Below, piece after piece: positions 256 through 60,697 of a DNA stretch of 64,000 nt. The notes under the pieces are model-generated. The model was not told the DNA's origin, searched no databases, and saw only the letters and a list, made by a program, of their open reading frames with translations. The position numbers and the translations under genes are program-made. The stretch comes from an uncultured bacterium. GTDB lineage: Bacteria; Patescibacteriota; Minisyncoccia; Phycocordibacterales; UBA9973. Positions within the stretch are counted from its first letter, which is position 1. The number at the start of each line of letters is the position of its first letter. The stretch lies in NCBI GenBank assembly GCA_903892035.1, contig CAITGV010000001.1, forward strand, positions 91,624-155,623, read 5' to 3'.

Positions 256-320
256 CCGTACGATTAAACCCAACATTAGAAAAACCATACAAGAATAGAG
301 TAAGCACATTATTAGTTAGT

Positions 321-3481: not shown

Positions 3482-3482
3482 G

Positions 3483-4247: not shown

Positions 4248-4250
4248 ACG

Positions 4251-4691
4251 CTAGTTCTTCGAGACGAACTCGTTGGGAACGAATCCCGACTGTCCAATGT
4301 AGTCTCCGCTCATTATTCGCACCTCACTCGAACTGAATCCCTCACCAATGACCTTGACTTGTGTTCCATTTTTTACGGGAAGCACTTGTCCGTCCAAAAC
4401 CATTTGTGCTATTCCAGTTGTGTCACCCGCGACAGAAAGTTGCATCGTTCGATCAAAGTAATCTTTTGTGATCGGAACGAGAATTGGATCGGCACTACTT
4501 TTCAGATATGCTGTGTCGCCGATTAAAACTTGGCTAGCAGGAGGAGTAGGTGCTGAAGCACCTGAAGAATTACTACTACCTGAATTGCTAATAATCATCA
4601 CGAGTACACCGAGACCAATGATTGATCCATAAATTATTTTCTTCTTCTTACTCAATGGCTTTTTCGCACCTGCTTGATCGCTTTTTTCCAT
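4251..4691 (-). CDS. membrane-anchored hypothetical protein
   Basis: Lys-rich N-terminus, single TM helix (IIYGSIIGLGVLVMII), Ser-rich linker, extracytoplasmic beta-rich domain. Confidence 0.4.
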   Translation of the reverse strand: MEKSDQAGAKKPLSKKKKIIYGSIIGLGVLVMIISNSGSSNSSGASAPTPPASQVLIGDTAYLKSSADPILVPITKDYFDRTMQLSVAGDTTGIAQMVLDGQVLPVKNGTQVKVIGEGFSSSEVRIMSGDYIGQSGFVPNEFVSKN

Positions 4692-4954
4692 ACATACTTT
4701 TTTTGCGTGTTAGTAATAAATCCGAGGATGAGACGCAAAAAGCCCACCACATGGGTTGAGGGCTATTAGACCCTCCATACACCTTTCGATGTACGGCGAT
4801 CAAGCAAACCCCATATGATGGGTTCTTTATGCTTGATCGACTTTATTCGCCATGCCGCCGCTGAAGCGAGGGTTTAGGCTACTTACTTATTCAGTTGTTA
4901 ACAAACAATAGCATTTTCGACGCTATTATTCCAGACCATGATATCGCAGTACTG

Positions 4955-5012
4955 TGAAATCACTGAGGGGAGTTACCAACACGTTGCCAACAACGACCCC
5001 TCAGTGATTTCA
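4955..5012. promoter_or_regulatory. perfect 16-bp inverted repeat (TGAAATCACTGAGGGG / CCCCTCAGTGATTTCA) with a 26-bp spacer, just upstream of the recombinase start
   Basis: Read directly from the sequence. Lies 25 nt upstream of the probable start codon at 5037. Candidate operator or att core. Confidence 0.5.
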
Positions 5013-5036
5013 ACGATCTGCGTCATTAATATATAC

Positions 5037-6368: not shown

Positions 6369-6420
6369 TCAAAAAACGCCTACTAAACTATCGACTGGGG
6401 CGATTCAAAAAAGACTTACG

Positions 6421-7062
6421 CTAAATTTTATTTAGTTGAGTAACATGTTGTGCGTGTTTTTGTGATTCCATGCGAGCCAATTTACCCTCATGTGTTTCTG
6501 GCTCTATGTTTGCCGCGTCCTTAAAAATTTCTGTTGCACGCGTTTTAATTTCAACCTGCGTTGCCAAATTTTCCCTGCGTGCCATCTTAGAAGCGATTAT
6601 ATCCAACTGGTTAAAAAATACTTTTATGTAAATGAAATTAAGAACATCGTCTGTGGGTGTTCCTCGGGCTGGACTTACTTTCTTAAAATGCTTCACGTTT
6701 GAAGCTGTTTTAATGTAATCGGACACATTTCCTTGATTGATTCCGATTTGACTTTTATTAAAAATAATTTTGAAGAAAACATAAACAAACCCGAGAGTGT
6801 ATCCTATTTGAACAGCCGGTGAGCCAAATTTAAAAATTGAAAATGTGATACCAAAAAATATAACGAAAAGAATCAATATGCTTCCCAAATATTTTGAAAT
6901 AATCGGGTGATTTTTCGCAATCATATTTTCACGTTCAAGCTCTACTGTCAAAGGGATACAGAAGACGAGACAAATAACAGCCGAGAGGAGCGTGTAGCTC
7001 GCTATTATCATTCCGAAAATGAACGACACTATTAAAATAATCATTATATACAAAGTAATCAT
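6421..7062 (-). CDS. multi-pass membrane protein, hypothetical
   Basis: About 4 predicted TM helices, then a charged cytoplasmic C-terminus. Starts 11 nt downstream of the giant helicase gene on the same strand. Confidence 0.45.
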   Translation of the reverse strand: MITLYIMIILIVSFIFGMIIASYTLLSAVICLVFCIPLTVELERENMIAKNHPIISKYLGSILILFVIFFGITFSIFKFGSPAVQIGYTLGFVYVFFKIIFNKSQIGINQGNVSDYIKTASNVKHFKKVSPARGTPTDDVLNFIYIKVFFNQLDIIASKMARRENLATQVEIKTRATEIFKDAANIEPETHEGKLARMESQKHAQHVTQLNKI

Positions 7063-7073
7063 ATTTTTATCTC

Positions 7074-10000
7074 CTAAAGTGCTTTTGTTCCTTTACAATA
7101 GGGAAATTTTGAACATCCGTAGAATTTTCCTCTTTTGCCATTTCGGAGAATCATTTTTGATCGACAGCGCGGGCAGTCCTTATCTGAAAGAACTGGCGCG
7201 GGCTTATTATCTTTAACGGCTTGCGCTAAATCCTTGCAATATTTACAAAATTTTCCGCGACCACTAATTAATTTAGGATTCTTAAAATCAACATCCTCTC
7301 TTATTTCATGGCATTTTGGACATTCCTTTTTATCTCCATTTTGAAGACCCTCGATCGTCTCTTGAATGCCAGTCAGAACGGGATTATAGCTAGTACGAAC
7401 ATTTTTTATGAGACCACTGATTCGCTCGTTCAATGTCGATATCTGGTTAGCACCGATGTTGAATTTGTTTATTCGGAGAAACTTGTAACCGTAGCTTTCT
7501 AAAACCTTCTGTCGATAAATATCATCCTCGGAATAATATTCTTTGTAGTTGAATTCATTTACCTCCGCGAGATCGCTAAAATGCTCCTTGAAGCCGTCGT
7601 ACTCAATGACTATCTTGTGTTCATTACGATTCTCGTCTTTGTATACCAACAAGAAATCAACCTTGTAGTGGGGGTGCTTATAGGTACGATCGAGCTGTTT
7701 AAGATATTTGCCGATCTCGAATTGAGGAAAAAATTCGATGTTCTCTTTATTATTTTTCCAGAACTCCGTTTGATAAAACCAGTTCAATACCTCTGGTTCC
7801 ATTTTTGATTTCTGGTCTGTCTCGGAAACATCATGTTCCTTTTTGGCTTCTTCAAGAATAAAATAGTAGTGTCTTAACGCGTCACCTATTGAACCGCTGA
7901 ATTTGTCGAGCGGTTTGCTGAGAACGAAGTGGATCGTCTCTTTCGCTCGGCTGAAACCTACGTTCAATCGTTGTACTTTTATTTTACCGTCTTCTTCCGT
8001 ATCGACACTGTTAAAGTCCTTTATGAATACGCCCCAGAGCCTGTCGCTATTTTCATTTGCAACCATGGAGTAGAAAATAATGTCTCGTTCCTCACCTTGG
8101 CAGGTGTCAAATGTCATTATCTTCAAATTGAGATTTTCAAAATAGAAGTCACGCTCTGGGAGCTTGCTGATTGCTTCCATGAGTAGCTTCTGCTGATTCG
8201 TGTGGGGCGTAATGATACCGACGCTCTGATTTGTCTTGGCTTCATACAAAGTCTGCAACTGCTTGATTATGAAATCAATCTCCGCTCTATTGCTGTTAGG
8301 TACACTTTCCTCTTTTCCGTCATGATCGACGAAGCTAAATTTAATGACATCGTCGATGTTCTTACCTCGAATTTTCATGACCTGAAGACCACCCTGATAG
8401 AAATATTTATTTGAGTAAGAAATGATTTCCTTGTAGCCACGAAAATGCTTGAGTAGCTGAGTATTGTAGTTTGTGATAAATTCAAAGAACTCCAAGATTG
8501 AAGTCTTGATATCGAATTTTCCGAGTTTAACCAATTTTGAATCCTCTTCGGAAACTTGATCTCGAAACACTCGCGCCAGAGAATTCAGGTATTCTCGGTT
8601 TGTCTCCGATTTCGCTTGAGCCGCCTTGATATTGCTGAACTGCTTTTTGTCTCCGAGAATAAGAACTTTTTTTGCGCGGATCAAAGCTGGAAATGCCTGC
8701 GCGATACTCACCTGTGAAGCCTCATCAATAATAACCAAATCAAACAACCCCGCATTTAAAGGGATATATTCTGCGTAGTCTCTTATGCCCGCAAGAATAC
8801 AAGGAAAAGCATCTTTAAGTTTGAGAAACTGCTCTTTGGGGAATTTCATCTTGTTTTTAATGACCTCCCGCAAGGTTTCGGCATCTGCCTTATTATTGTT
8901 GTAGAAATCAATGAGACGACCGTCCAAAACGTGGGTAACCTGAGTTGTCACGAGCGTCTCAAGCTCCTTCTTTTGACTAACATAGCTCATCGCTGGGATC
9001 GATCCAAACTTAGAAGTTATAGAAGCTTTAAGTACGGGGTAGCGCGCGGATCGATCGAAATCAAGGCTACTCATCGTCACAAGCGGACTATTAAATATTC
9101 CCGAAAAATGCTCTTTTGAAATATTTAATTTTTGGATTGAAGCTGGGCATAGATCGAATTCCTCGAACAGTGACAACGCTTCTTTTTCAGTAGAAAGAAT
9201 TATTTTTTCTTGCTCATCAAAGTTGGTCTTTGATGAAACGAGTTCAACCAAAACGGCGACATGGTCGATACTCATTTCAGTGATAAGTTTTGATTGCGCT
9301 ACCAAAGCTTGGAAATAATCAAAAATTTCTATCGTCTGCTTCAACTCCTTGATATTCTCGTGAGCAATTCGATACTCCACCAGAGGAAACAGCTCTTTGA
9401 ACGAATTATCCAAAGACTGGAGTTTTGATCCGCTGAACATATAACCGACAATAGGCATTTTTGCTTCTTCGCAGTCACGAACCCATTTTTTGAGATTCAC
9501 CAAGTCTTTTTGGGCGAAAACCTTAAGCCGTGAGATCCGCTGAATGTCCTCGCCGAATCGGCGGTATGTTTCTTGAGCAAGGTGGTAATATGCCAAAAGA
9601 ATCTGCAAGAAGTTTAAGAGAATATCTTTACTCTTAAGGGTTTCGAGTTCAACATGTAGAATCTTTGAGAGACAGTCATTTTTAAATATTTGAGGCAATG
9701 AGAGAATGAACGATCGAAACTCTCCCAAAAATACAATCGCGCTTTCATTTTGAGAAAGTTCGTTAAGATCAAACGCGTATCCGTGCGAAGAATAAAAATC
9801 TTCTAAGGAGTAAAACTCACTTATTTCCTTCAGATCAATTTCAGAGTAAGCCAAAGCCTCTGCCTCGATATCTTCTTTTAGTGAATTTGAGAGCTTGGAA
9901 ATATTTTCCTCAATCGCAGCAAAATCTTTTTGGACGGCTCGATGATGAGTTTTTATCTTTTCAATTGATGATTTCGCAAGTATCTGTCCATATGTATTTC

Positions 10001-11630
10001 CTGTTTTCCCAAGTCTTAAGATTGGATTTTGGAAACCCTCGTTATCGTCAAGACGACGCACCTTGTTCATCGTTTCGGTAATTTTATCCTCAACGACATC
10101 AAGTGCCTCTTTCTTATCAGAAAGAACAAGTACCGATTGGTGATTTAAAATCGCGTCAAAAATAATCGCGGTGATTGTATGACTTTTACCAGTACCCGGG
10201 GGACCCTCTACGGTGATGTACTTACAGCCTGGCTTCCTGATCGCCGACAGAATTTGAATCTGCTCACTATTGAGTGGGATAGGGCTTTCAGAAACGAGCC
10301 TGTCGGGAATTGAGGCATCGTCCCATTCTTTCTCAACCTCTGGATTGAGGAGAATTGGATTCTTATGAATAAAGTCTTCGATGAGGGTGTTGAATATTTG
10401 AGCAAGCTCTCCCTCTTCCAAACTAAGTTGCTGGAGAATTTCCTCATAGTCATTCACAAGAGCTTCGTCCGATTTATCGAACAAGGAGAAATAAATTGAG
10501 TTTGAAGTTCTGACGCTCAAGCTTCTCGCTTGCTGGGGATCCTTGGAAGCGAGATCGATATTTTTATCAAGATCAAAAAGGTTAGTGATCTCGTTTAAGA
10601 TCGCTTCGAGCGTGTCGTTAGACTTACCCTGAGATAAGTAGATGATACGGTCAGTTACAGTTTTCAAATTACCCTTTGTTCCTTTTTCTTTGTTGTACTC
10701 TTGTACGATGAATTCGAGTGCCTTTTTGTTTATATAAATCTGTGAATCAAATTCAATTTTAAAAACATCATTGTCTCTTCGCAGGGAAAAAGGCGTATAG
10801 AAAATTGGGTACTTCGTTTTATCAAAAGTGATGTCGCAGAAGTAGAGGTAAAATTCTTGCTTATCTAAAATCGCCCTATTCTTATCAATTTCAAAAAGCT
10901 CACTAAAAAGGTCTCCCACTTGGAACGATTCAAAGAAAGTGTTTATCGCATTTTTTGCATCAGAAAGATCTATCACCGATTTGATCTCTTTTTGAACATT
11001 AACTTTCTGTCCCGAGATAAGCAATTTCAGAATTTCAGAAAGCTTATTCTCGATAAGCCTCAAGAATATCTCGGTCAATTCTTCCTCCATTAAAAAGATA
11101 TCGTTCTCATCACCAATACCGAGGCTTTCAACCGATTTTTCAATACTACCGACAAAAGGCAACACTAAGAAAGTTTTTATATGCACCGCGCTGTCCTCAA
11201 GAATCAATCCAAGGGCTTTATCATATTCCTTGGCGTACAAAGTAGCCGACTTTTCAAGATCGTCCGTGACGGCATTGATAAGCTCATTTATTTGAGAATT
11301 TTGAATTTTACCAACCTGCAGGCTGATCAAATCCAAAAGACTTTGGGGTAAATTACTCCTGTACACGCCCTTGCTGATCGTACTCAAAGCTGACTTGTCA
11401 AAACCGTGAGTGATTAGTTTCCAAATTTCTTTTGTGAATGAGGGATATTTTGAAAGGTTAATCCCAACGAGTAGATTGTCACTGGTTCGATATTTTATTG
11501 ACCTTTTAGGATTCTTCCTTTTGTGGAAATCCGTCTCAAGAAAGTCCATGAAATACTTCGCAACTTCTTTAACAAAAGTTAGGTTGCCAAGTCGCTCTTT
11601 CTCTTCAGACTGATTGGATTCGTTTTTCAT
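7074..11630 (-). CDS. 1518-aa multidomain protein: N-terminal DUF4011-like region, SF1B Upf1/DNA2-like helicase (AAA_11/AAA_12), DUF559/Vsr-like PD-(D/E)xK endonuclease, and two topoisomerase-I-type zinc ribbons
   Basis: Helicase motifs: Walker A GPPGTGKSH, motif II LVIIDEASQ, motif III ILGDKKQ, motif V TFDTCQGEERD, motif VI RLNVGFSRAK. DUF559 core: KVDFLLV...IVIEYDGFKEHF...GYKFLRINKFNI. C-terminal CPKC..CKYC and CPRC..GCSKFPYC zinc ribbons. Confidence 0.8.
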   Translation of the reverse strand: MKNESNQSEEKERLGNLTFVKEVAKYFMDFLETDFHKRKNPKRSIKYRTSDNLLVGINLSKYPSFTKEIWKLITHGFDKSALSTISKGVYRSNLPQSLLDLISLQVGKIQNSQINELINAVTDDLEKSATLYAKEYDKALGLILEDSAVHIKTFLVLPFVGSIEKSVESLGIGDENDIFLMEEELTEIFLRLIENKLSEILKLLISGQKVNVQKEIKSVIDLSDAKNAINTFFESFQVGDLFSELFEIDKNRAILDKQEFYLYFCDITFDKTKYPIFYTPFSLRRDNDVFKIEFDSQIYINKKALEFIVQEYNKEKGTKGNLKTVTDRIIYLSQGKSNDTLEAILNEITNLFDLDKNIDLASKDPQQARSLSVRTSNSIYFSLFDKSDEALVNDYEEILQQLSLEEGELAQIFNTLIEDFIHKNPILLNPEVEKEWDDASIPDRLVSESPIPLNSEQIQILSAIRKPGCKYITVEGPPGTGKSHTITAIIFDAILNHQSVLVLSDKKEALDVVEDKITETMNKVRRLDDNEGFQNPILRLGKTGNTYGQILAKSSIEKIKTHHRAVQKDFAAIEENISKLSNSLKEDIEAEALAYSEIDLKEISEFYSLEDFYSSHGYAFDLNELSQNESAIVFLGEFRSFILSLPQIFKNDCLSKILHVELETLKSKDILLNFLQILLAYYHLAQETYRRFGEDIQRISRLKVFAQKDLVNLKKWVRDCEEAKMPIVGYMFSGSKLQSLDNSFKELFPLVEYRIAHENIKELKQTIEIFDYFQALVAQSKLITEMSIDHVAVLVELVSSKTNFDEQEKIILSTEKEALSLFEEFDLCPASIQKLNISKEHFSGIFNSPLVTMSSLDFDRSARYPVLKASITSKFGSIPAMSYVSQKKELETLVTTQVTHVLDGRLIDFYNNNKADAETLREVIKNKMKFPKEQFLKLKDAFPCILAGIRDYAEYIPLNAGLFDLVIIDEASQVSIAQAFPALIRAKKVLILGDKKQFSNIKAAQAKSETNREYLNSLARVFRDQVSEEDSKLVKLGKFDIKTSILEFFEFITNYNTQLLKHFRGYKEIISYSNKYFYQGGLQVMKIRGKNIDDVIKFSFVDHDGKEESVPNSNRAEIDFIIKQLQTLYEAKTNQSVGIITPHTNQQKLLMEAISKLPERDFYFENLNLKIMTFDTCQGEERDIIFYSMVANENSDRLWGVFIKDFNSVDTEEDGKIKVQRLNVGFSRAKETIHFVLSKPLDKFSGSIGDALRHYYFILEEAKKEHDVSETDQKSKMEPEVLNWFYQTEFWKNNKENIEFFPQFEIGKYLKQLDRTYKHPHYKVDFLLVYKDENRNEHKIVIEYDGFKEHFSDLAEVNEFNYKEYYSEDDIYRQKVLESYGYKFLRINKFNIGANQISTLNERISGLIKNVRTSYNPVLTGIQETIEGLQNGDKKECPKCHEIREDVDFKNPKLISGRGKFCKYCKDLAQAVKDNKPAPVLSDKDCPRCRSKMILRNGKRGKFYGCSKFPYCKGTKAL

Positions 11631-46422: not shown

Positions 46423-47640
46423 ATGTCTAAAAAAAATTCTTGTCCGTATTGTGGACCGAGTCAGATAAATCATTTTATTGCTTGGTTCTCTGCTTGGGTT
46501 GATCATAGCTTCAGTATTTTTTCGAGTAAACCAAATTTTCTTTTAAGTTGGCTCGAACCACTTATTCCAAATAAATTTTATGAAATCGGAAGTTTAGGAA
46601 TAATTAATACACTTACATTTTTGCATTTAGGAACCATAAAAAGAAAGCCAGATGAGCGTGATAGTTACCGAGGGCGAGTCCTTTGGGAAGAAGCAGAAAA
46701 AAGAGGAATAGAAATGTATGAATTTTTACTTTTTGGAACAAGAAAAGATTTTTTTGTAGCGAAATATGGTGGAGTTGTAAGATGTTTCGATGGTTTGCCT
46801 CGCCCTCGCGGAAAAGAATCTGATGCTCTAAACTGGATGGATAATAAAGCAATTTTGCATAAAAAATTGAGCGCACATGGAATTCCTATGGCAAAATTTG
46901 GTGTTGCTTCTACTTGGAGTCAAGCACAAAAAATATTCAAAAATTTAAAAGCTCCTGTAATTTCAAAACCTCACTTGGGTTCCAGAAGTCGCCACACGAC
47001 TACACACATTACTGATGAAATAATTTTGAAAAAAGCATTTTATATTGCAAGGCAACTTTCTCCGTGGGTAATAATTGAAGAGGAACTTTCTGGGATGGTT
47101 TACCGTGGAACTGTAATTGGTGGAAAATTAATTGGTGTAGTCGAGCGCTCTCCTGCATCTGTGACCGGGGACGGCATTCACACGCTTCGCGAACTTGTGG
47201 ATGAAGAAAATAAAAATCCACTTCGCCAAGGACCAATTTTTCACCATATACCAGAAAATTCAGATACAATTGAAGAACTTTCTCGACAAGGAATTGATTG
47301 GAAAACTATTCCAGAAAAAAATAAAATAATTACTCTCGGACAAAAAGCTAGTCGCGGACTCGGAGGTGGAATTACAAATGTCACTCACATAATGCACTCT
47401 GACAATGTCGCAATACTTGAAAATGTCGGCAAAGTTTTAGCTGACCCACTTATTGGAATTGATTTTATAATGGACGACGTCACCCGCTCGTGGAAAGAAG
47501 AACCTCGCTCGGGAGTGATTGAAGTAAATAGTTTACCTTTCATAGATTTGCACCACTACCCACTCGTAGGAAAACCTGAAAATGTTGCTGGTGCTCTTTG
47601 GGATATTGTTTTTCCAGAGTCAGCGAAAGGAAAAATATAA
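46423..47640 (+). CDS. ATP-grasp ligase (RimK/CphA-like) with N-terminal Cys motif
   Basis: ATP-grasp core (ISKPHLGSRS ... VIEVNSLP) and N-terminal CPYCGP. Confidence 0.5.
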   Translation: MSKKNSCPYCGPSQINHFIAWFSAWVDHSFSIFSSKPNFLLSWLEPLIPNKFYEIGSLGIINTLTFLHLGTIKRKPDERDSYRGRVLWEEAEKRGIEMYEFLLFGTRKDFFVAKYGGVVRCFDGLPRPRGKESDALNWMDNKAILHKKLSAHGIPMAKFGVASTWSQAQKIFKNLKAPVISKPHLGSRSRHTTTHITDEIILKKAFYIARQLSPWVIIEEELSGMVYRGTVIGGKLIGVVERSPASVTGDGIHTLRELVDEENKNPLRQGPIFHHIPENSDTIEELSRQGIDWKTIPEKNKIITLGQKASRGLGGGITNVTHIMHSDNVAILENVGKVLADPLIGIDFIMDDVTRSWKEEPRSGVIEVNSLPFIDLHHYPLVGKPENVAGALWDIVFPESAKGKI

Positions 47641-47699: not shown

Positions 47700-48179
47700 C
47701 TATTTATTATATGTAATTTCAGAATCTGGTGTCGGCACAGTAGTGTCGGGTTCGAGATGTGAAATATGTTTTCGGGTCACCACATAAGTTCCAAGAAATT
47801 TCAAAAAATCATTTGTTTTTGGTCTCTCCCCTTTTTCAAAAAAGTGTCGGAGCGGTGATGCTTCTGGCGTCAGCTCAAAGTGTCCACGAATCTCTCCATT
47901 TGAAAAAACACGCAAATGATATTGTTCACTAAAGCTCGTGAGCTTTCTCCAAGATAGAACTTGCGATGGATCTTCCCATGCCACAAAATGGTTTCCGAAA
48001 CCCCACTGTTCCGATAAATGTTTTTTTAGTCCTGCAAGTGTGTGGTGAGGATCAAGCCAACCTATATGATATTTCTGCCTTTTATTTGTATGTAAAAAAA
48101 GAAACCAATGTTCCAAATATGGAAATACAGGGTACAACCATCTCCAAATCTTTTGTTCAATCTTTCTGTATAGATTCAT
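47700..48179 (-). CDS. hypothetical protein
   Basis: No motif recognised. Convergent with the ATP-grasp gene. Confidence 0.3.
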   Translation of the reverse strand: MNLYRKIEQKIWRWLYPVFPYLEHWFLFLHTNKRQKYHIGWLDPHHTLAGLKKHLSEQWGFGNHFVAWEDPSQVLSWRKLTSFSEQYHLRVFSNGEIRGHFELTPEASPLRHFFEKGERPKTNDFLKFLGTYVVTRKHISHLEPDTTVPTPDSEITYNK

Positions 48180-48499: not shown

Positions 48500-49891
48500 T
48501 TAAGCAGACTTAGTATATTTTCCCTCCATATCAGTATGTTTTACTATTTGCTCAATTTTTTCACCATCACCTCTGTCATCTAGTTTTATATAAACTCCGA
48601 CCCTTTCAATCACAGGAAGTAATTGAACTTCATTGTCATAATTTCCACCACCTTTTTCAAGCTGAAACCATACCATTGTCAGTATACTGTCATTTTCTTT
48701 ATAGAGGTCCAAATTGTACCAGATAACGAAATCTAACTCACCCCAATCGCTTGAATCAATTCTAATTGAGGATTTTGGCAAAAGCTCTCCTTTTTCTCTT
48801 ACTACTTTACTTGTTTCTAGTAAACCATCTTCGTCACCACAGTATGCTCCAGACAATAAGTTTACTCTTGTATATTTAGAATCTGTTGAGTTTACAAGAT
48901 GTACTTCAAAAGTGCTATCTTCTTCATTCATTATAAATGCCACAAACGGTTTATCTATCTCTGATTTTACTTTTAGAACAGATACCATTTCTGACTCTTT
49001 CATTTTTTCTTGGAAGTCTGCAAAAGTACTAAGGCAGTCTGCGATGTGTGCCATCAGAAGAAATGTTATCATATCTTCTTTGCTGTGCTCCTCTATATTT
49101 TTAATAACCGCTTTAAACGCAGTCATATCTGCGAGAAAACTTCGTTCAAATGCAGGAATGTCATTATGTTTCCGAAGAATACCAATATCAGATTGTGTAC
49201 GTTTACACAATTCAATTACTTTCTCTGCCATAAATGAACTTTTAAACACGCGACTTATTTCATATAGAATATATGCCAAATTCCATTCAATATAAGAAAT
49301 ATGTCCTTCATCTAAAGCTTGTACCCTGTACAATTCAATATCTATTTCTAAAAGGTCTTGCCTGAGAGGACTTTCAAACCAGCATTCCAATATTGTGGCG
49401 ATAACTTTGCGAGTGTAATGGATTATTTTTTCTTTTGGGGCATTGAACCTATCAAAAGTTTTTTCTCCATCTATTTTATAATCAGCAATAAGCTCTGATG
49501 TGTTTGAGATTATATCGGCGGATTTTAAGAGTAAAGAATCATTTGAGAAAGTTTTGATATGCTCTAGTGCTTCAGCTTTTCGCTCTACCCAAGACAAAGA
49601 CTTGTCTTGCTCTGTCACACTTAAAACCAAATCAGATACTCTCTGACCAAACATATCAGTAATCATTTCTTTAGTGACTTTGTGTTCAGTCACACTATCC
49701 TCAATAGTATCGTGCAGTATTCCAGCGACTACCACATCCTCTGTAGCCCCTGTATTAGCCAGTATTAGCCCCACAGAGAGCGGATGAGTGATGTATGGGA
49801 CATCTTTGCCTTTCCTTTTTTGCTTCTGGTCCAGCTCGTGGGTTTTGATTGCTAAGTTTATTGCTTTTTGAATGCGTGATGTATATATCAT
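48500..49891 (-). CDS. SpoT/Mesh1-type HD-domain (p)ppGpp hydrolase-like domain fused to a ~270-aa unknown C-terminal domain
   Basis: YITHPLSVGLILA...AGILHDTIED...FGQRVSDLV...LLLKSADIISN matches Rel/SpoT HD-domain blocks. No synthetase domain. Confidence 0.6.
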   Translation of the reverse strand: MIYTSRIQKAINLAIKTHELDQKQKRKGKDVPYITHPLSVGLILANTGATEDVVVAGILHDTIEDSVTEHKVTKEMITDMFGQRVSDLVLSVTEQDKSLSWVERKAEALEHIKTFSNDSLLLKSADIISNTSELIADYKIDGEKTFDRFNAPKEKIIHYTRKVIATILECWFESPLRQDLLEIDIELYRVQALDEGHISYIEWNLAYILYEISRVFKSSFMAEKVIELCKRTQSDIGILRKHNDIPAFERSFLADMTAFKAVIKNIEEHSKEDMITFLLMAHIADCLSTFADFQEKMKESEMVSVLKVKSEIDKPFVAFIMNEEDSTFEVHLVNSTDSKYTRVNLLSGAYCGDEDGLLETSKVVREKGELLPKSSIRIDSSDWGELDFVIWYNLDLYKENDSILTMVWFQLEKGGGNYDNEVQLLPVIERVGVYIKLDDRGDGEKIEQIVKHTDMEGKYTKSA

Positions 49892-50142: not shown

Positions 50143-51639
50143 CTATATCACAGAAAGCAGATGCTTCCAAATCGCATACATCGCATATGTATCTAGCTTG
50201 CAATACTTTAAAAGGTCCTGAATCTGAGTTTGCTTATCAGTTTCACTGTATTGGTCTGTGACAATCTTATTCCAAGTATCTGAAGCCACAGCCCCATTTT
50301 GTATGCCAAGCTCTTTATAACTCAAATCCGAGAGCGTAGGCAACACAAATTTGATAGAAGTCTTACCTTTAAATCCCTTGTGAACATACATCTGTTTTTT
50401 AAACACATCTTCCAAATCAACAACTTTTGAGTTTAAGTTTTCTAAGAAATCTTTATATTCAGGGTTTCTTTCAACAAGCTTATTATTGATACCCATTTCA
50501 AAACTTTTATTCCAGACAATTATAGAGCCAGTTTTCGGTAGCTGTTTCTGTAGAGCTTCTATAAATTCTATGTCGGGCTTTGTTGATTCGGAGAATATAA
50601 ATTCGCTGTGGGCTGGCTCTATACTTTCTTCGCTTGCTATATGCAAGGAAAATTGAAATGGTATCTGGTTGAATGGACCATAGCCAGAAAATCTAGGGAT
50701 AGCTGATGGAAATGTCTCGTAATCTAAAAATGATATTGGATACTTAATCGTCTCAAGAAATTCACTGATTGCATTTTTATCAATCAATTTCTTGTCTATC
50801 TGTGCAACTTGAACCTGATTCTTTTGAATATCACTTAGCTCAAAGTCCTCTGGTACCTCTAGTATAGAAAACTTCTCTAGGTTCATATCTACAAGGTCCT
50901 CAAGTTTTTTCTTTGATAAACCGATGCGGGCTATGTCGTGAATGCTGTAATCAGAAACATCAGGATTGGAATACTTGAAAGTCGTACAGTGTGAGCTTCT
51001 ACCTCTGGTGATACATTTACACTCTCCGTGCGGTTCTTCAGTCTGAGATAGTACACCAAAGGCACTATCCATATCAGAGCTGACAGCATCAATAATACCG
51101 TTTACTTTGTCTGTAAAATCTTCTTTAGTAAGTAGCCCATTTAAATCAATGTCTCCCGCACGAATATATTCTTTATTTAAACGCACGAGATATAGTTTGT
51201 TTATAGGTATATTATTTTCTTTCAAAACAACATACTGAAAAGCTAAATCGTTAGAATAGATTTCATCTTTTGCTTTCTTGTTTTCTCCACTATTGGAAGC
51301 CTTTACTTCATAAACATCATACGCTCCTACTTCACTGTTCCAGACAAAAATATCAGAAATCATTTTAAACTTTTCTGTTTCAAATACTGGCTGATATATA
51401 ACTGGTGTTTTCTTTTCAATCAAACTTTTGGTCAATTCTGTATCATCTCTATCTTCCACCAAAACACCATTTGGAAACAACCCTCGTGCGAGCGTATCCA
51501 CATCATTACCAGTCTCAATAATCATCATTTCAAACTCTGAAAGTGGCTGTGATTTATACACCTCAGGCTTGTGAATCTTCAGCCAAGCATTCTTACCGCA
51601 ATCTTGGTATATAAGATAGTTTGTTTTTGATAGTTTCAT
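50143..51639 (-). CDS. DUF2779-like predicted dual nuclease (N-terminal PD-(D/E)xK plus C-terminal DnaQ-like exonuclease motifs)
   Basis: N-terminus LSKTNYLIYQDCGKNAWL. D..YEVK motif. C-terminal FLDYETF and YCKLDTYAMY. 3-nt gap to the RM gene. Confidence 0.45.
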   Translation of the reverse strand: MKLSKTNYLIYQDCGKNAWLKIHKPEVYKSQPLSEFEMMIIETGNDVDTLARGLFPNGVLVEDRDDTELTKSLIEKKTPVIYQPVFETEKFKMISDIFVWNSEVGAYDVYEVKASNSGENKKAKDEIYSNDLAFQYVVLKENNIPINKLYLVRLNKEYIRAGDIDLNGLLTKEDFTDKVNGIIDAVSSDMDSAFGVLSQTEEPHGECKCITRGRSSHCTTFKYSNPDVSDYSIHDIARIGLSKKKLEDLVDMNLEKFSILEVPEDFELSDIQKNQVQVAQIDKKLIDKNAISEFLETIKYPISFLDYETFPSAIPRFSGYGPFNQIPFQFSLHIASEESIEPAHSEFIFSESTKPDIEFIEALQKQLPKTGSIIVWNKSFEMGINNKLVERNPEYKDFLENLNSKVVDLEDVFKKQMYVHKGFKGKTSIKFVLPTLSDLSYKELGIQNGAVASDTWNKIVTDQYSETDKQTQIQDLLKYCKLDTYAMYAIWKHLLSVI

Positions 51640-51641
51640 AA

Positions 51642-53921
51642 CTATTTCAACAGCTCATATTTAAACAATTTTGGTGTGATATATCTTGCGTAGTAGTTCT
51701 TAAGTTTCTTTTTAAGATTCTCTAATTCACCATTGAGTGTTGAGTAGTGATAAACTATTTTATTATTTTCATCTTTCTCCGATGTATTTAATTCCATTTC
51801 AATTTGGTAAGGACCGTACGCTAATTTTTTACTATAGTTTTCTGTCTTCTTAGCTTCAACTAAAACAGCTTCCCATATCTTTACTAATTCTTTTTCGTCA
51901 CCATTTAATTTGAATTTTTCAAGCTGTTTACTTGCTAGTGTGTCATTATCAAAACACAATTCATTTTTATAGAATCGTTTGTCGCTACCAGTAAAAGAAA
52001 TACATTTATTGTATCGAGATAAACATGCAAAGATAAAGCATGATTTCAAGAAGTCTTTATCTTTTGTGTATTTATCACCACCATCACCAGTGGTAAAATA
52101 AACATCTTTTTCATACCACTTTTCTTGAGGGTAAAGTTTTGCTGAAAAAAGTGGTAATTTTTCAAAGTAATTATCGTCTCGCAAATAAAAACCATTTTTT
52201 CTTAAATTTATAGTTGTCCTTGTTAAATTTTTTGCTTGTCCATTAAACATCAAACCGACTAAGTGTAAGTAAGCGATTATATTTTTATTGTAAATATTTT
52301 CTGTAGCAGTGCTTTTCTGTTTTGGTGCTTCATAACCATCCGCTCCACACCAAACACCATTAGTAATATCATCCTTTAGTACTCTTCTGTCAAAATAAAC
52401 TTCATTCGGTGATTTATAACATTTACGAATGATTATGTCTTGAATTTGAAAAATCGTATCATCAGAAACATCAGCTGTATTTTTTGTGTTAATATCAAAA
52501 GCATTCAAAGTAAAATTTTCCTGATTTTTGTCAAAATTTTGCCACAAAATGCAAGAGATTGTTGATGGAGAAGCATGAAAAAATTTGCGATTAAAAGCAA
52601 AACCAAGTTTAAATGTTTTGTTTACAAGTCCAATATTTTTAAAGTATTTTACTGGACTGAATAAAATATAACTATCGGTAGGTTGCCTCAAGTAATAATG
52701 AAACCCAGACCATATAAATAAGTTGGCTAATTCCTTTGATGGAACATTTCCTTTCATTTTTGATTTAAAATTTTTCTTAAATTCAGTTGAAATAAAAGAA
52801 TTTTTACCAACATTACGAGATACTCCAGTTTCCATCGTATCCCCAGAAGCATCACTATATGGTGGGTTCTCAAATAAAATTACCGTACATTTTGAATTAT
52901 CAGTATATTGTTTAATAATTTCATTATTTACAAAATCTTCACTAAGAGCGTCTGCATTTACCACAAAGCCAGCAGAAAATTCTACGTTGTCATCAGTTGG
53001 TGGAATAATATGACGAACACGTCCATTGAAACGTTCTAACAAAACCTTGTATTCATAATATTCATAAGTACTAACAATGGTGTGCTCAAGTTCTTCACTA
53101 GAAAGCTCTGCTTCCAAATTTCCAGTCCCCGCACATCGGTCTAAAATAATATAATCATTACCCTTAGGAACAAGCTTGATTGCTTCACGAACAAGCTCTA
53201 CAGATTTTTTTGCATAAGCAGGTGGAGTAAAGAATGCACCGAGTTCTTTTTTTATCAAATTATCATTCAACTTATCCATCAAATACTTAAATTTGATGTT
53301 TGTTTTTTCCTTAAATGGCAGAATATAGTCCTTGAACTTTATTGGTTTGCGAATTTCGCCACCGTCTTTATCATCAAGATAATCACTTTTCTTTGCAGTT
53401 GGATTTTCTCGGTAAAATTTTTCCGCCCATCCAACAATACAATCCTCATCAATTTTTATTTTAGTGAAATTATTTTCTTTTAGTATTTTTAAAATCTTGT
53501 CTGCACCCATACCCGTAGAGTAGTCAATTTCTATTGGCTGTTTTTTTATTACAAAACCATCATTATTTTTACTTGCTCCACCATAATAAATTTGGTGAAT
53601 TTCTTCAAAATAATCTCCGCTATCAAAAATATTTGCCTTGCTCTGATTCAACGAAATAAGCAAAATATTTTTGGGCACTGGATTACCAGTAATTCTTAGT
53701 CGTGAAAGATACTTAATTGCCTGAAAAAGTACTTGCTGTGTGTTGTTGATGTTTAATTTAAATTCAAAAATATTCCCTTTATTAACACCATCGGTGTTAG
53801 CAATTAAAATATCATTTTCATCAATGTTTATTCCAAAATTCTTGAAAAAGTGAAGTTGACCTTCCCGTTCAGTGGTAAAAGTTTTATTTAGTGTTTTTTT
53901 ATTTTTAGTTTCTGTTTTCAT
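51642..53921 (-). CDS. type IIG/IIL restriction-modification enzyme (PD-ExK nuclease fused to gamma-class N6-adenine methyltransferase and TRD)
   Basis: N-terminal D..EFK motif. GAFFTPP (motif X), DRCAGTGN (motif I), NPPY (motif IV). ORF open to 53972. Confidence 0.65.
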   Translation of the reverse strand: MKTETKNKKTLNKTFTTEREGQLHFFKNFGINIDENDILIANTDGVNKGNIFEFKLNINNTQQVLFQAIKYLSRLRITGNPVPKNILLISLNQSKANIFDSGDYFEEIHQIYYGGASKNNDGFVIKKQPIEIDYSTGMGADKILKILKENNFTKIKIDEDCIVGWAEKFYRENPTAKKSDYLDDKDGGEIRKPIKFKDYILPFKEKTNIKFKYLMDKLNDNLIKKELGAFFTPPAYAKKSVELVREAIKLVPKGNDYIILDRCAGTGNLEAELSSEELEHTIVSTYEYYEYKVLLERFNGRVRHIIPPTDDNVEFSAGFVVNADALSEDFVNNEIIKQYTDNSKCTVILFENPPYSDASGDTMETGVSRNVGKNSFISTEFKKNFKSKMKGNVPSKELANLFIWSGFHYYLRQPTDSYILFSPVKYFKNIGLVNKTFKLGFAFNRKFFHASPSTISCILWQNFDKNQENFTLNAFDINTKNTADVSDDTIFQIQDIIIRKCYKSPNEVYFDRRVLKDDITNGVWCGADGYEAPKQKSTATENIYNKNIIAYLHLVGLMFNGQAKNLTRTTINLRKNGFYLRDDNYFEKLPLFSAKLYPQEKWYEKDVYFTTGDGGDKYTKDKDFLKSCFIFACLSRYNKCISFTGSDKRFYKNELCFDNDTLASKQLEKFKLNGDEKELVKIWEAVLVEAKKTENYSKKLAYGPYQIEMELNTSEKDENNKIVYHYSTLNGELENLKKKLKNYYARYITPKLFKYELLK

Positions 53922-54046
53922 AGGCATCCGTACTGAGATGCCTAAAAACAAAATAGGCACCCCGAGTAGCAAGGTGCCCCAAGATAACAGCTTTCGCCGT
54001 TGGTCCTGATTCCCTGACTAGGGTGCCCATTATGGGCAGGACCAAC
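53922..54046. other. cluster of nested GC-rich hairpins in the divergent intergenic region
   Basis: AGGCATC/GATGCCT, GGCACC/GGTGCC, and GTTGGTCCTG/CAGGACCAAC enclosing CCCT..AGGG and CCCA..TGGG. Confidence 0.45.
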
Positions 54047-57742: not shown

Positions 57743-58690
57743 ATGAATAATAATAAATTGGGTAAATTAAGCAAGGTAGACTTGCGGGAAATTTGGAAAA
57801 ATGAAGAGTATGACTTTTCAGCTTGGCTGGCTGAAGAAGAAAATCTTGCTCTTTTGTCCGACGAACTTGGTGTTTCAATAAAATTGATTGAGAGAGAAGC
57901 GGGTGTTGGAAAATACAGCTTGGATATTTTAGCGGAAGAGGAAGGCACGGGGCATAAAATCGTGATAGAGAACCAACTTGAAAATACTGACCACGACCAT
58001 TTGGGAAAAATCATCACGTACTCTGCTGGGCACGATGCGAAAATCATCGTTTGGATTTTCAAAGACATCTGTGAAGAGCACCGCAGTGCGATTGACTGGC
58101 TCAACGACAACACAGGCGATGACCTTCACTTTTTCGCTGTGAAGTTGGAAGTATGGAAAATCAACGAATCCGAATCAGCTCCGAAGTTTCAAATAATTTG
58201 TAAGCCGAACGAGTGGAAAAAAATTGTAAAACATAGTTCGGGAAGTAAGGATTTGGGAAGTACTGAATTGAAAAAACTTGATTTTTGGACAAAACTCAAA
58301 TCATACGCTTTAGATAAAAAAGTAACTCTATTCACACGAACACCCAACCCGTATCACTGGTATGATATATCTATTGGAACTTCTGGAGCTCATATTTCAC
58401 TCACTATCGGTATTAGAGAAAGTAAAATTGGTTGTGAACTTTATATTGACGATAACAAGCCCTTATTTGAGCATCTCAAAACAAAAAAGATGGAGCTTGA
58501 AGGACAGCTCAACGGGAAGCTTGAGTGGATAGTAGCAGAAAAGGCGTGTCGCATCGTGTTACGAAAAGAAAATGCCAACTTGGATGATGAAGAAAATACC
58601 AGCACCTTATTTGATTGGATGATTGAAAAAGCGGTCGTTTTTCATAAAGTATTTAGTCCGTTAGTAAAGCAATACAAAAATGAGCAATAA
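57743..58690 (+). CDS. hypothetical protein with PD-(D/E)xK-like core (possible DUF4268-like)
   Basis: YSLDILAEEEGTGHKIVIENQLENTDHDHLGKIITY block. Confidence 0.35.
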   Translation: MNNNKLGKLSKVDLREIWKNEEYDFSAWLAEEENLALLSDELGVSIKLIEREAGVGKYSLDILAEEEGTGHKIVIENQLENTDHDHLGKIITYSAGHDAKIIVWIFKDICEEHRSAIDWLNDNTGDDLHFFAVKLEVWKINESESAPKFQIICKPNEWKKIVKHSSGSKDLGSTELKKLDFWTKLKSYALDKKVTLFTRTPNPYHWYDISIGTSGAHISLTIGIRESKIGCELYIDDNKPLFEHLKTKKMELEGQLNGKLEWIVAEKACRIVLRKENANLDDEENTSTLFDWMIEKAVVFHKVFSPLVKQYKNEQ

Positions 58691-58871
58691 AGATTTTTAC
58701 ACAGCCAAAGAACTGGCAGATAAACTGCGAGTAAATATAATGACCATCTATCGCTATATAGGTGCGAAAGGTGCAAAGAAATTAAATGCCTATAAATTTG
58801 GCAAGGAATTTAGAATTGATAAGAAAGAGTTTGATAGTTTCTTGAACAAGGCAAAAACTAATGGAAAATAA
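58680..58871 (+). CDS. excisionase-family HTH DNA-binding protein
   Basis: YTAKELADKLRVNIMTIYRYI HTH. Overlaps the serine recombinase start. Confidence 0.5.
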   Translation: MSNKDFYTAKELADKLRVNIMTIYRYIGAKGAKKLNAYKFGKEFRIDKKEFDSFLNKAKTNGK

Positions 58872-60468
58872 AACTGTCAAAATGATATATGGTGGCTACC
58901 ACAGAAAATCTACCGAATCTGAGGATAGGCAGGTTCTTTCTATTGATTCTCAAATTGATGAGGGTAAGAGAATCGCAGATAGCTTAGGGATAAAAGTGAA
59001 ACCTGAGCATATTCTTTCAGAATCAAAATCAGCCAAAGTAACTGGTAAGCGATTAAAGTTCCAGCAAATGCTCAGTATGATTGAGCGAGGAGAAATAAAT
59101 GGAATCATTGTATGGCACGCAGACAGGCTTTCAAGAAATGCTATGGACTCAGCTTTACTTATTGACCTGATAGATAAAGGAAAACTTATTGAAATAGTTA
59201 CGCCAGCACAAACATTCAGGAATACTCCGTTAGATAAATTTATGTTTATGTTCCAGTGTAGTCAGGCAAAAATGGAGAACGACAAAAAAGGCGTTGATGT
59301 AACAAGAGGACTTCATAAAAAAGCTAGTCTCGGAATGTATCCTGCACCAGCACCTGTTGGTTACAAAAATGATAAGTATGCAGAGAAAGGAAACAAAGTG
59401 CCACTAGTAGATGCGGAAAGATTCCCACTGGTGCGAAAAATGATAGACCTTATGCTTACAGGAAATTATACTGTGGCGGAGATATGGAGAATCGCAAGAA
59501 ACGAATGGGGCTTTACTATGCCGAGTGGAAAGAAAATCAGTAGACCTACTGTTTATAGAATTTTCTCAAACCCTTTTTATTATGGGAGATACGAATATCC
59601 TCTCAGAAGCGGTAAGTGGTATGACGCTATCCATACTCCGATGATGGATGTGGAGGAGTACGACAAGATTCAATTTATCCTTGGCAAGAAAGGTAAACCT
59701 AGACCGAAGTCTCACATATTTGATTTTACAGGAATGATGCACTGCGGAGAGTGCGGAGCAAGTATTACAGCCGAGACAAAAATTAAAAGGCAGAAAAATG
59801 GGAACATTCATACCTATGTTTACTATCACTGCACTAAAAGAATAAATCCAAACTGCACGCAAGGCTCTATTGAGGAGAAAGATTTAAAGAAGCAAATTGT
59901 AGCTGAAATTGAGAGTATTGAAATACCGCCAGAATTTCATAGTTTTGCTATGAAATGGTTTAAGAAAGAGAACGAAAAAGAAATTGATGGTCGTAATGCT
60001 GTTATAAAAGCCAATGAGAAAGCCTACAAGGCTTGTTTAGCGAAGATTGACGGCTTAACCGATATGAGAGCGGGTGGCGAAATATCAGCCGTAGAATTTG
60101 CTGAAAGAAAAATAAAATTCCTTGCAGAAAAGAAACAACTTGATAATTTATACGGTGATACAAGTAAGAGAGTAGATAGGTGGCTAGATACTGCCGATAA
60201 TATGTTTACTTTTATTGAAAACGCAAAAGATAAATTTGAAAATGGAACGATTCAGACAAGACGCTCAATACTTTCAACACTAGGTTCAGACCTCATACTA
60301 AAGGATAAAATACTCAGTATTGATATAGATAAATCACTCTTTCCAATAAAAAGAGTCTCAAAAGAGGCTAATGCAATTAGTAAACGGTTAGAACCTCTCA
60401 AAACTATTGATAAACAAAGAGAATTTGACCTTTTGTGTGATAAAAATCCCGTAATGCGGAGGCGGTGA
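58861..60468 (+). CDS. large serine recombinase (paralog of the 5037..6368 gene)
   Basis: YHRKST catalytic Ser, ADRLSRN, and zinc ribbon CGECGA...YYHCTKRINPNC. By eye about 45 % identical to the first recombinase. Confidence 0.85.
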   Translation: MENKTVKMIYGGYHRKSTESEDRQVLSIDSQIDEGKRIADSLGIKVKPEHILSESKSAKVTGKRLKFQQMLSMIERGEINGIIVWHADRLSRNAMDSALLIDLIDKGKLIEIVTPAQTFRNTPLDKFMFMFQCSQAKMENDKKGVDVTRGLHKKASLGMYPAPAPVGYKNDKYAEKGNKVPLVDAERFPLVRKMIDLMLTGNYTVAEIWRIARNEWGFTMPSGKKISRPTVYRIFSNPFYYGRYEYPLRSGKWYDAIHTPMMDVEEYDKIQFILGKKGKPRPKSHIFDFTGMMHCGECGASITAETKIKRQKNGNIHTYVYYHCTKRINPNCTQGSIEEKDLKKQIVAEIESIEIPPEFHSFAMKWFKKENEKEIDGRNAVIKANEKAYKACLAKIDGLTDMRAGGEISAVEFAERKIKFLAEKKQLDNLYGDTSKRVDRWLDTADNMFTFIENAKDKFENGTIQTRRSILSTLGSDLILKDKILSIDIDKSLFPIKRVSKEANAISKRLEPLKTIDKQREFDLLCDKNPVMRRR

Positions 60469-60542
60469 GATTCGAACTCACGGTCCTTTAAAGGGACGAC
60501 GGTTTAGTAAACCGTTGATTTAAACCACTCATCCACGCCTCC
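60457..60542 (-). tRNA. class-II (long variable arm, Ser-like) tRNA with anticodon loop UUACUAA, i.e. apparent anticodon ACU. CCA is not encoded.
   Basis: Hand-folded. Acceptor GGAGGCG/CGCCUCC, T-arm GUGAG-UUCGAAU-CUCAC, anticodon stem ACGGU/ACCGU, variable stem GUCC/GGAC. The last 12 nt are overlapped by the recombinase stop. Confidence 0.55.
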
Positions 60543-60610: not shown

Positions 60611-60695
60611 GGAGACGTGTCGGAGTGGTCTAACGTACCTCCTTGCTAAGGAGGCAGGCTTCACGGCCTCGCGAGTTCGAATCTCGCCGTCTCCG
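60611..60695 (+). tRNA. tRNA-Ser (anticodon GCU)
   Basis: Acceptor GGAGACG/CGUCUCC, anticodon stem CCUCC/GGAGG with loop UUGCUAA, long variable arm, T-arm GCGAG-UUCGAAU-CUCGC, G73. Confidence 0.85.
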
Positions 60696-60697
60696 CT

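Follow-up and report, generated by a model that had tools for sequence, protein, structure and literature searches.

Small alarmone hydrolases (SAHs) of the RelH type, such as RelH of C. glutamicum (PDB 7qoc/7qod), the L. levettii enzyme (7qoe), Listeria Lmo0812 (4yf1) and Mesh1, are single-domain proteins of about 180–200 amino acids. SAHs neutralise all toxic small alarmone synthetases (toxSAS) tested and are also carried by phages (PMC7229694). A published gene pair of a structural immunity protein and a SAH, BcTis1 and Aph1, follows the Apk2 toxin in a prophage of B. caccae (PMC10083569), and orphan SAHs with promiscuous metabolic roles have been described (PMC9765508). In a literature search, no paper was found that links SAHs, the clade treated here or (p)ppGpp to Patescibacteria. 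Here, a SAH gene of an uncultured patescibacterium (GTDB order Phycocordibacterales, UBA9973) was analysed, which is located at positions 48500 to 49891 of a 64,000-nucleotide stretch of contig CAITGV010000001.1 (the window, meaning the whole stretch of DNA analysed). Its 463-amino-acid product carries two further modules behind the hydrolase, designated MID and TAIL. New are the appended TAIL domain and the pattern in which it switches partners; the hydrolase itself is of a known kind.

The original prediction, made from the sequence alone, had described the gene as a lone SpoT/Mesh1-like hydrolase fused to one unknown domain of 270 amino acids. The C-terminal half is indeed devoid of recognisable motifs (no match in Pfam, NCBIfam, PADLOC or PHROGs), but it is not a single domain. 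Alignments, profile searches and models resolved a helical bundle (MID) and a beta-domain (TAIL), so that the approximately 270 C-terminal residues are two separate modules, the last of which belongs to a sizeable independent family. The parts of the gene are as follows:

48500–49891, minus strand: whole open reading frame (ORF) of 463 amino acids, HD(SAH)-MID-TAIL fusion, taken from the ORF list (ATG to stop)
49364–49891, minus strand: residues 1–176, SAH domain (HD_4), from Pfam, PDB matches, Foldseek and catalytic residues
48983–49339, minus strand: residues 185–303, MID, five-helix bundle, from the alignment with longer homologues and a model
48509–48976, minus strand: residues 306–461, TAIL, all-beta domain of about 155 amino acids, from standalone homologues, family profile and a model

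A RelH-type hydrolase with two added modules

The N-terminal domain matches Pfam HD_4 (E value 4e-14; 52.9 bits versus a cut-off of 27.2). Among PDB sequences, the SAH of L. levettii (7qoe, 9e-26) and RelH (7qoc, 3e-22) are the best matches listed, followed by Lmo0812 (4yf1, 7e-19) and Mesh1 (4e-11), while the (p)ppApp-specific Aph1 (7smg) reaches only 1e-5. The AlphaFold model, calculated with 35 homologues in the alignment, has pLDDT (predicted local distance difference test) values above 90 over residues 1–303 and superposes on RelH (7qoc) in Foldseek with a TM-score of 0.90 and a root-mean-square deviation (rmsd) of 1.8 Å. With the RelH-type SAHs as a group, the domain shares the HD_4 fold (TM-scores of 0.84–0.90, rmsd 1.8–2.2 Å, 32–33% identity), identical metal-binding and catalytic residues and the lack of a synthetase domain. 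The Rel/SpoT-type HD blocks recognised in the original prediction were therefore borne out and lie far beyond chance level. The set of metal-binding and catalytic residues (R26, K27, H36, H60-D61, E64-D65, D126 and N130) is complete and does not vary within the family. H36, H60-D61, E64-D65, D126 and N130 align with RelH, the L. levettii SAH and Lmo0812 and are invariant in the 35 homologues; the metal-binding His and Asp residues, the loss of which had been named as a reason to discard the assignment, are thus all present. The domain is firmly placed as a RelH-type SAH of a common clade of the Candidate Phyla Radiation (CPR), and is predicted to be catalytically competent from its intact fold and residues. 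It differs from the known single-domain enzymes in the size of the whole protein, to which a helical bundle of 120 and a beta-domain of 155 amino acids are added.

An identity as a long RelA/SpoT homologue (RSH; SpoT, Rel or RelA) was rejected. No RelA_SpoT synthetase, TGS or ACT domain was matched by Pfam in the 463-amino-acid protein, and TIGR00691 (spoT_relA) covers only the N-terminal 100 residues or so (model positions 3–95), with 61.6 bits versus a cut-off of 499. The absence of a synthetase domain from the protein had been correctly foreseen and extends to the six-frame translation of the window, in which RelA and SpoT synthetase-domain queries found no synthetase-like sequence (best E value 0.39); the SpoT hydrolase domain, used as positive control, recovered the fusion protein at 2e-11.

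The identical 463-amino-acid protein is called on five to six contigs from independent assemblies, including ERZ1426842 of the European Nucleotide Archive (ENA) and the Logan assembly of ERR4194711, which shows that the HD-MID-TAIL fusion is genuine and no assembly artefact. On these contigs, of which those from ENA and NCBI measure 359–488 kb, it is surrounded by the same neighbours as in the window. The closest relatives of the protein are all found in Patescibacteria/CPR (Parcubacteria, Nomurabacteria, Yonathbacteria and others).

MID is shared with a minority of the CPR SAHs (alignment A1) and is matched by its hidden Markov model (HMM) at 1e-43. In the model, helices span residues 177–304 with pLDDT values above 90; W203, E211, H282 and D285 are invariant. 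No relative of MID was found among PDB sequences or in Pfam. The slot after HD or HD-MID varies in the family: it may be empty or be filled by Zn-ribbon tails or by Zeta_toxin-like P-loop kinases. The latter arrangement was seen in the homologues P0007, P0016, P0035, P0037, P0038, P0045, P0055, P0079 and P0087, in which the SAH carries a C-terminal Zeta_toxin (PF06414)/adenylate-kinase-like P-loop kinase, joined either directly or through the MID bundle. This layout of a 3'-(pyro)phosphatase and a kinase recalls enzymes of nucleotide salvage or RNA end-healing.

The TAIL family and its partners

TAIL aligns with none of the HD homologues. Its six close homologues (45–48% identity) are standalone proteins of about 155 amino acids, and when 1.84 billion representatives were searched with a profile, 215 clusters were obtained at E values up to 1e-3, 131 of them at up to 1e-10. 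By sequence comparison, TAIL is an independent domain, since it has standalone homologues of its own length and belongs to a previously undescribed family that comprises at least 215 clusters. Across 27 diverse tails (alignment A6, numbering of the 463-amino-acid protein), N334 and D395 are invariant and Y340, G348, L370, S374, W391, P426 and R440 near-invariant; a conserved block reads 'ELDFVIWYNLDL'. The conserved polar and near-invariant residues would be explained more readily by a conserved pocket than by a co-evolving interface between proteins.

HD-MID and TAIL were predicted separately, TAIL being unresolved in the full-length model. The AlphaFold model of TAIL is a beta-sandwich of moderate confidence (predicted TM-score, pTM, 0.63; pLDDT 64, with 70–89 in the core). 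No relative of TAIL was detected in Pfam, NCBIfam, PADLOC, PHROGs, PDB sequences (E values up to 10) or BFVD, nor by pattern scans of species-representative genomes and viral contigs. Foldseek returned generic beta-sandwich likenesses only, all with TM-scores below 0.5 (DUF2027, C2, cytoplasmic domains of Kir channels and phage fibre fragments). For the scans of genomes and viral contigs, alignment A6 was too variable; a word-indexed protein search with it gave only 14 proteins, and a metagenome scan for TAIL gave only three loci.

The architectures of 154 representatives of the family were recorded with our own HMMs and a hydropathy scan. Most of the proteins (107) stand alone; one to five transmembrane helices are attached N- or C-terminally in 16, and soluble extensions of other kinds are present in 23. 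A WapI-like immunity domain was found in one member. Fusions to a SAH-type HD domain were found in eight of the 154, six in the order HD-tail and two in the order tail-HD. A Pfam scan of 39 multi-domain tail proteins (E values up to 1e-3) detected only HD_4, HD, WapI and DUF6320, and no signal of S_2TMBeta, SAVED or CARF. Besides the fusions, an adjacent pair was found in L004/L005, where the tail gene is followed by a 191-amino-acid HD_4 gene at a distance of 17 bp.

All HD domains partnered with a tail keep the full catalytic set. They are 23–54% identical to one another and 27–37% identical to the HD domain of the window. These divergent HD lineages, together with the two domain orders, indicate that tail and SAH were joined several times independently. 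On the sequence data, such repeated joining argues strongly that the two are functionally linked. The HD-tail fusion loci have no common neighbour, and the fusions therefore look self-contained. Directly upstream of the tail gene, a conserved 119-amino-acid gene product with two transmembrane helices is encoded in L002, L003 and L007, and ORFs with multiple transmembrane helices in L008.

Ordinary SAHs of Patescibacteria

When one genome per species was scanned, at least 571 loci were found to encode the clade to which the HD domain of the window belongs, nearly all of them from Patescibacteria. Over residues 1–180, identity to the window HD ranges from 48 to 76% among the matches listed, and the identity to one ordinary CPR SAH of 256 amino acids is 84%. 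Lengths and neighbourhoods were surveyed for the best 80 of the at least 571 loci (L009–L088). In these, the ordinary CPR SAH is usually a standalone protein of about 190 amino acids, or of 260–300 amino acids with a short tail. MID was present in two of the 80 and TAIL in none, nor was a tail gene located within 6 kb. A lone SAH is thus the norm in CPR genomes and the unusual feature of the window protein is the appended modules, not the hydrolase, because the clade is widespread and the window HD is so close to an ordinary member of it. The premise that such a hydrolase is out of place on its own in a small genome fails, as the clade ranks among the most common proteins of Patescibacteria and is present in at least 571 species-level genomes. 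Some genomes even carry two SAH copies, such as L040 with two HD genes 3 kb apart; L059/L084 and L074/L076 are SAH pairs, each from one contig or one metagenome-assembled genome.

A conserved operon partner of the ordinary SAH was considered and rejected, since the 80 loci share no synteny and the commonest neighbour family occurs in only seven of them. The 150 flanking proteins match 139 Pfam families, led by ResIII/DEAD (4), GmrSD_N (3) and GIY-YIG (3). The possibility raised earlier, that the gene is the sole conserved SpoT ortholog amid syntenic housekeeping genes, is correct insofar as its HD domain belongs to a conserved clade; synteny is entirely lacking in this clade. DUF2779 proteins are encoded within four genes of the SAH gene in three of the 80 loci (representative L027_4) and in the window. 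No toxSAS- or Apk-like synthetase recurs beside the 80 ordinary SAHs. The sole synthetase near any SAH locus examined is a long RSH of the Rel type (synthetase and TGS) in L061, a GC-rich contig labelled Bdellovibrionales, where it is encoded at about 10040–10723 on the minus strand, approximately 4 kb from a CPR-type SAH copy.

Genomic settings of tail genes

Seven of the eight tail contexts of at least 9 kb are elements with a large serine recombinase (LSR) or islands with restriction-modification (R-M) and abortive infection (Abi) genes. L002 and L003 are LSR/HTH_17/PrimPol/DUF5659 elements, in which the tail gene is part of a cargo operon that runs divergently to a cI-like HTH_3 gene; the cargo (7628–9095 in L002, 7100–9158 in L003) comprises the gene with two transmembrane helices, the tail gene and a gene for a signal-peptide-like protein of about 200 amino acids. 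The equivalent cargo slot, beside the regulatory region, holds a tail-HD gene in the LSR/DUF5659 element of L096/L097. In L096 (5224–8959), this cargo consists of SNase, tail-HD and two unknown genes. A further LSR/PrimPol element (L089) lies beside a Shedu SduA_C gene. A common origin of these LSR elements in one element family was rejected, as their recombinases are only about 25% identical.

Among the islands, L004 has the tail gene after genes for a SNF2 helicase, a 1555-amino-acid Eco57I/MmeI-type enzyme and a DUF4268 protein; the DUF4268 gene (6920–7849) is directly upstream of the tail-HD gene pair, and its product is detectably homologous to the DUF4268 protein of the window. In L091, the tail gene follows straight after hsdM-hsdS-hsdR, overlaps a DUF4238 gene and is near a NERD gene. 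In L094, it stands straight before hsdM-Fic-hsdS-Abi_C-KAP NTPase. No alarmone synthetase, cyclase, CD-NTase, Cas10 or recognisable toxin was encoded adjacent to the tail gene in the contexts examined.

The island in the window

The window is AT-rich (about 35% G+C) and encodes, among other genes, a type IV pilus operon and ComF. The fusion gene is carried on an integrative, R-M-bearing island, of which the following genes were annotated:

51642–53972, minus strand: 776-amino-acid N6-adenine DNA methyltransferase-like protein (FFTPP, DRCAGTG and NPPY motifs in the translation; weak PHROG methyltransferase match)
50143–51639, minus strand: DUF2779 protein, Cas4-like nuclease plus RNase H-like (Pfam DUF2779, 2e-38; weak PADLOC Cas4 match)
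47700–48179, minus strand: orphan ORF of 159 amino acids, possibly part of the module (co-occurs with the fusion gene in the independent contig L001)
56595–57701, plus strand: tyrosine integrase of the island (PHROG integrase, 1e-23; Pfam Phage_integrase)
57743–58690, plus strand: DUF4268 protein (Pfam DUF4268, 2e-28; BLAST link to L004_2)
58861–60468, plus strand: large serine recombinase at the island edge (Pfam Resolvase, Recombinase and Zn_ribbon_recom)

The methyltransferase-like gene, the DUF2779 gene, the fusion gene and the 159-amino-acid ORF form a co-directional block in this order. The stop codon of the first is 3 bp ahead of the DUF2779 gene, which is located 251 bp upstream of the fusion gene on the same strand; the orphan ORF follows 320 bp downstream of the fusion gene and had no match in Pfam, NCBIfam, PADLOC, PHROGs or PDB. 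Further along the island, two unknown genes, the tyrosine integrase, the DUF4268 gene, an HTH_17 gene and the LSR gene are found. The island limits were set by gene content and a modest dip in G+C, which falls to 0.31–0.35 across the island; a search for att-type direct repeats bounding it gave only short repeats at chance level. In a promoter and terminator scan around the fusion gene, counts equalled the shuffled expectation and were uninformative. The placement beside defence genes claimed in the original prediction is partly borne out by the neighbouring methyltransferase-like and DUF2779 genes and by the integrase, DUF4268, HTH_17 and LSR genes of the island; no PADLOC system model matched at the island.

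The last 13 nucleotides of the LSR gene, at its 3' end, lie within a tRNA-Ser gene (60456–60542). This tRNA-Ser is encoded on the minus strand and has, according to ARAGORN, the unusual anticodon ACT (anticodon loop TTACTAA). A normal tRNA-Ser(GCT) is located 70 nucleotides away on the opposite strand (60611–60696, plus strand). At the left edge of the island (46423–47640, plus strand), a standalone ATP-grasp protein is encoded, which matches only positions 209–479 of a cyanophycin synthetase model and has no Pfam match.

Possible function of the fusion protein

From the computed ORF, SAH fold, modules, family patterns and island, we infer a substrate, a sensor role of TAIL and a role in conflict. 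The fusion gene would be cargo of the integrative island and its product a self-contained, cytoplasmic protein of three modules. By homology, the Mn2+ site (H36, H60-D61 and D126) and the E64-D65 pair of the first module would strip the 3'-pyrophosphate from (p)ppGpp or (p)ppApp-type nucleotides, possibly also from 3'-pyrophosphorylated tRNA. MID may serve as a helical spacer or oligomerisation bundle. TAIL might be the input part, which senses a ligand or a partner and is combined in the family with alternative outputs, either SAH hydrolase or transmembrane helices; in the window protein it would gate or target alarmone hydrolysis. The putative outcome is that the cell or the mobile element is shielded from alarmone-based growth arrest, imposed by toxSAS or Apk-type toxins or by alarmone-mediated abortive infection. 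Such an island-borne SAH, gated or targeted by a sensor-like TAIL and without a housekeeping SpoT role, is the interpretation we tentatively prefer; it is quite possible, if still short of probable. A sensor or adaptor is favoured because of the recurrent pairing of TAIL with SAH or transmembrane segments, its conserved polar residues and its defence-island and mobile contexts. Protection from an alarmone-type arrest appears likeliest in view of the neutralisation of toxSAS toxins by SAHs and of the presence of SAHs in phages (PMC7229694). With the SAH antitoxins and phage SAHs (ATfaRel of C. marina, the SAHs of PVP-SE1 and SSU5, and type IV antitoxin logic in general), the window protein shares a hydrolase without synthetase domain on mobile or accessory DNA, and a neutralisation of alarmone-synthetase toxicity is plausible for it (PMC7229694). 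It differs from them in its extra domains and in the missing toxSAS: a FaRel-ATfaRel-type module has its synthetase toxin adjacent, whereas the neighbours here are the DUF2779 gene and the 159-amino-acid ORF, and no synthetase is encoded in the window. Of the antitoxin or counter-defence role suggested in the original prediction, the plausibility thus stands, but gene linkage does not support it, as no toxSAS- or Apk-like synthetase is adjacent, in the window or recurrent beside CPR SAHs.

Several points weigh against the preferred interpretation. No alarmone synthetase, cyclase or other signal generator was found by any examined tail gene or in the window. The term 'sensor' is derived purely from the logic of the architectures, since TAIL is modelled with only moderate confidence (pLDDT 64, pTM 0.63) and no informative structural relative is at hand (TM-scores below 0.5). 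PADLOC recognises nothing at the locus, the tail contexts looked at number about 11, several of them short, and the HD domain is nearly identical to a ubiquitous CPR SAH that perhaps has a housekeeping or salvage role.

A salvage or housekeeping function would mean that the SAH clears 3'-(pyro)phosphorylated nucleotides (host ppGpp or NADPH-type), with TAIL as a C2/Ig-like membrane-proximal or regulatory addition and the island as an incidental location. The very high conservation of the clade and its presence in at least 571 species genomes, the 84% identity of the window HD to an ordinary member and the precedent of promiscuous orphan SAHs (PMC9765508) all agree with this, as do the family's fusions to Zeta/adenylate-kinase-like P-loop kinases, which would suit nucleotide metabolism. 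The weak Foldseek matches of TAIL to C2 and Kir cytoplasmic beta-sandwiches and its transmembrane fusions are compatible with a membrane-proximal domain, although the TM-scores of the C2 and Kir matches are below 0.4. We consider the explanation rather unlikely: tail genes were absent within 6 kb of the 80 ordinary CPR SAHs and MID occurred in two of them only, the tail genes sit in LSR elements or R-M/Abi islands in seven of the eight longer contexts, and the ordinary SAH itself lacks a conserved housekeeping neighbourhood, its neighbours including ResIII, GmrSD, GIY-YIG and DUF2779. A similarly low likelihood is given to a bipartite immunity protein, in which TAIL would bind an incoming (p)ppApp or (p)ppGpp synthetase structurally and HD would act enzymatically, as a fused equivalent of BcTis1 and Aph1 after Apk2. 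The Apk2-BcTis1-Aph1 system (PMC10083569) likewise combines a small non-enzymatic protein with a SAH-fold hydrolase, and it is mirrored by the adjacent tail and HD genes of L004 and by fusions in both orders. A WapI-like immunity domain is attached to one of the tail proteins, and host-attached CPR cells could meet exported alarmone synthetases (PMC12691689). Tis1 homologues diverge down to about 24% identity (PMC10083569). On the other hand, the TAIL profile matches no PDB chain at E values up to 10 and its model, of moderate quality, no Tis1-like structure in Foldseek; no MuF, PAAR, LXG or synthetase toxin gene is adjacent in any context examined; and the HD domain is far closer to RelH-type enzymes (1e-22 to 1e-26) than to Aph1 (1e-5). 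The invariant polar residues would also be atypical of immunity proteins that co-evolve with a toxin, and the frequent fusions to multi-pass transmembrane segments are hard to square with a binder of a cytoplasmic synthetase.

A single sensor with a swappable transmembrane or enzymatic effector is the logic of CBASS (cyclic oligonucleotide-based antiphage signalling systems), Pycsar and type III CRISPR effectors (Cap15/S-2TMbeta, SAVED and CARF fusions), and the tail architectures follow the same scheme: a small, beta-rich soluble domain joined alternately to transmembrane helices or an enzyme and located in defence islands. TAIL could accordingly be the sensor of an Abi-type effector, which responds to a phage cue or a signalling nucleotide with a toxic output, namely membrane disruption in the transmembrane fusions and, in the window protein, runaway hydrolysis of an essential nucleotide (NADPH or 3'-phosphoadenosine 5'-phosphosulfate, PAPS) or of survival alarmones. 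The siting by R-M, Abi_C and Shedu genes and the LSR-element operon divergent from a cI-like HTH_3 repressor are in line with such an effector, and SAH-fold enzymes that dephosphorylate NADPH or bind PAPS (PDB 5vxa and 9chy) are among the Foldseek matches. It is nevertheless judged improbable, as SAH activity normally detoxifies (PMC7229694), the 39 multi-domain members gave no Pfam signal of S_2TMBeta, SAVED or CARF, and TAIL has neither sequence nor confident fold similarity to these domains; a cyclase, synthetase or other signal-generating enzyme was not found nearby in the contexts examined, nor did PADLOC match. Least likely, and very improbable, is a counter-defence sponge, with TAIL capturing a nucleotide signal of host defence and HD destroying it. 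Phage SAHs have been proposed to counter alarmone-based defence (PMC7229694), and the many small standalone tail proteins (107 of 154), carried on LSR/PrimPol elements, would suit a sponge. The transmembrane-fused members are unlike a soluble one, several tail genes lie within chromosomal R-M islands instead of elements, and neither PHROGs nor viral contigs nor BFVD contained a match to TAIL.

The preferred reading of a gated, protective SAH can be extended to the whole family. TAIL may be the founding member of a new sensor family, in which binding of a nucleotide signal, alarmone-like or other, would trigger one of two exchangeable outputs, SAH or membrane-disrupting transmembrane helices. 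These would form new one- or two-gene conflict modules on serine-recombinase elements and R-M islands, with the CPR protein as one of several independently evolved hydrolase versions. This extension is doubtful, albeit not far-fetched. If the proposed role is confirmed, a regulated multi-domain form would be added to the SAHs, so far known only as single-domain enzymes, and an uncharacterised family of domains of about 150 amino acids, with at least 215 clusters, would gain a handle. The recurrent pairing of TAIL with SAH or membrane segments in defence islands and integrative elements points to alarmone-linked conflict. Attention would also be drawn to a conserved SAH that is almost universal in Patescibacteria, episymbionts with minimal metabolism, and to the question why these organisms destroy alarmones, and whose.

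Further elements of the window

A second mobile element occupies positions 1–6400 of the window and has a higher G+C content than its surroundings (0.45–0.48 versus about 0.35). Its genes code for an N6_N4 DNA methylase, a helix-turn-helix protein, a terminase-like protein and another large serine recombinase; the latter shares 41% identity with the recombinase at 58861. Just upstream of this second recombinase gene, a LOOT RNA (Rfam RF03000, 76 bits) was detected at 4758–4880 on the minus strand. At 7074–11630 (minus strand), a protein of 1518 amino acids is encoded, which combines an SF1 helicase (AAA_11/AAA_12/AAA_30) with a weakly matching MTES_1575 restriction-endonuclease-like part and a C-terminal zinc ribbon of the topoisomerase type. 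This helicase-nuclease-like protein resembles the product of another defence-like gene.

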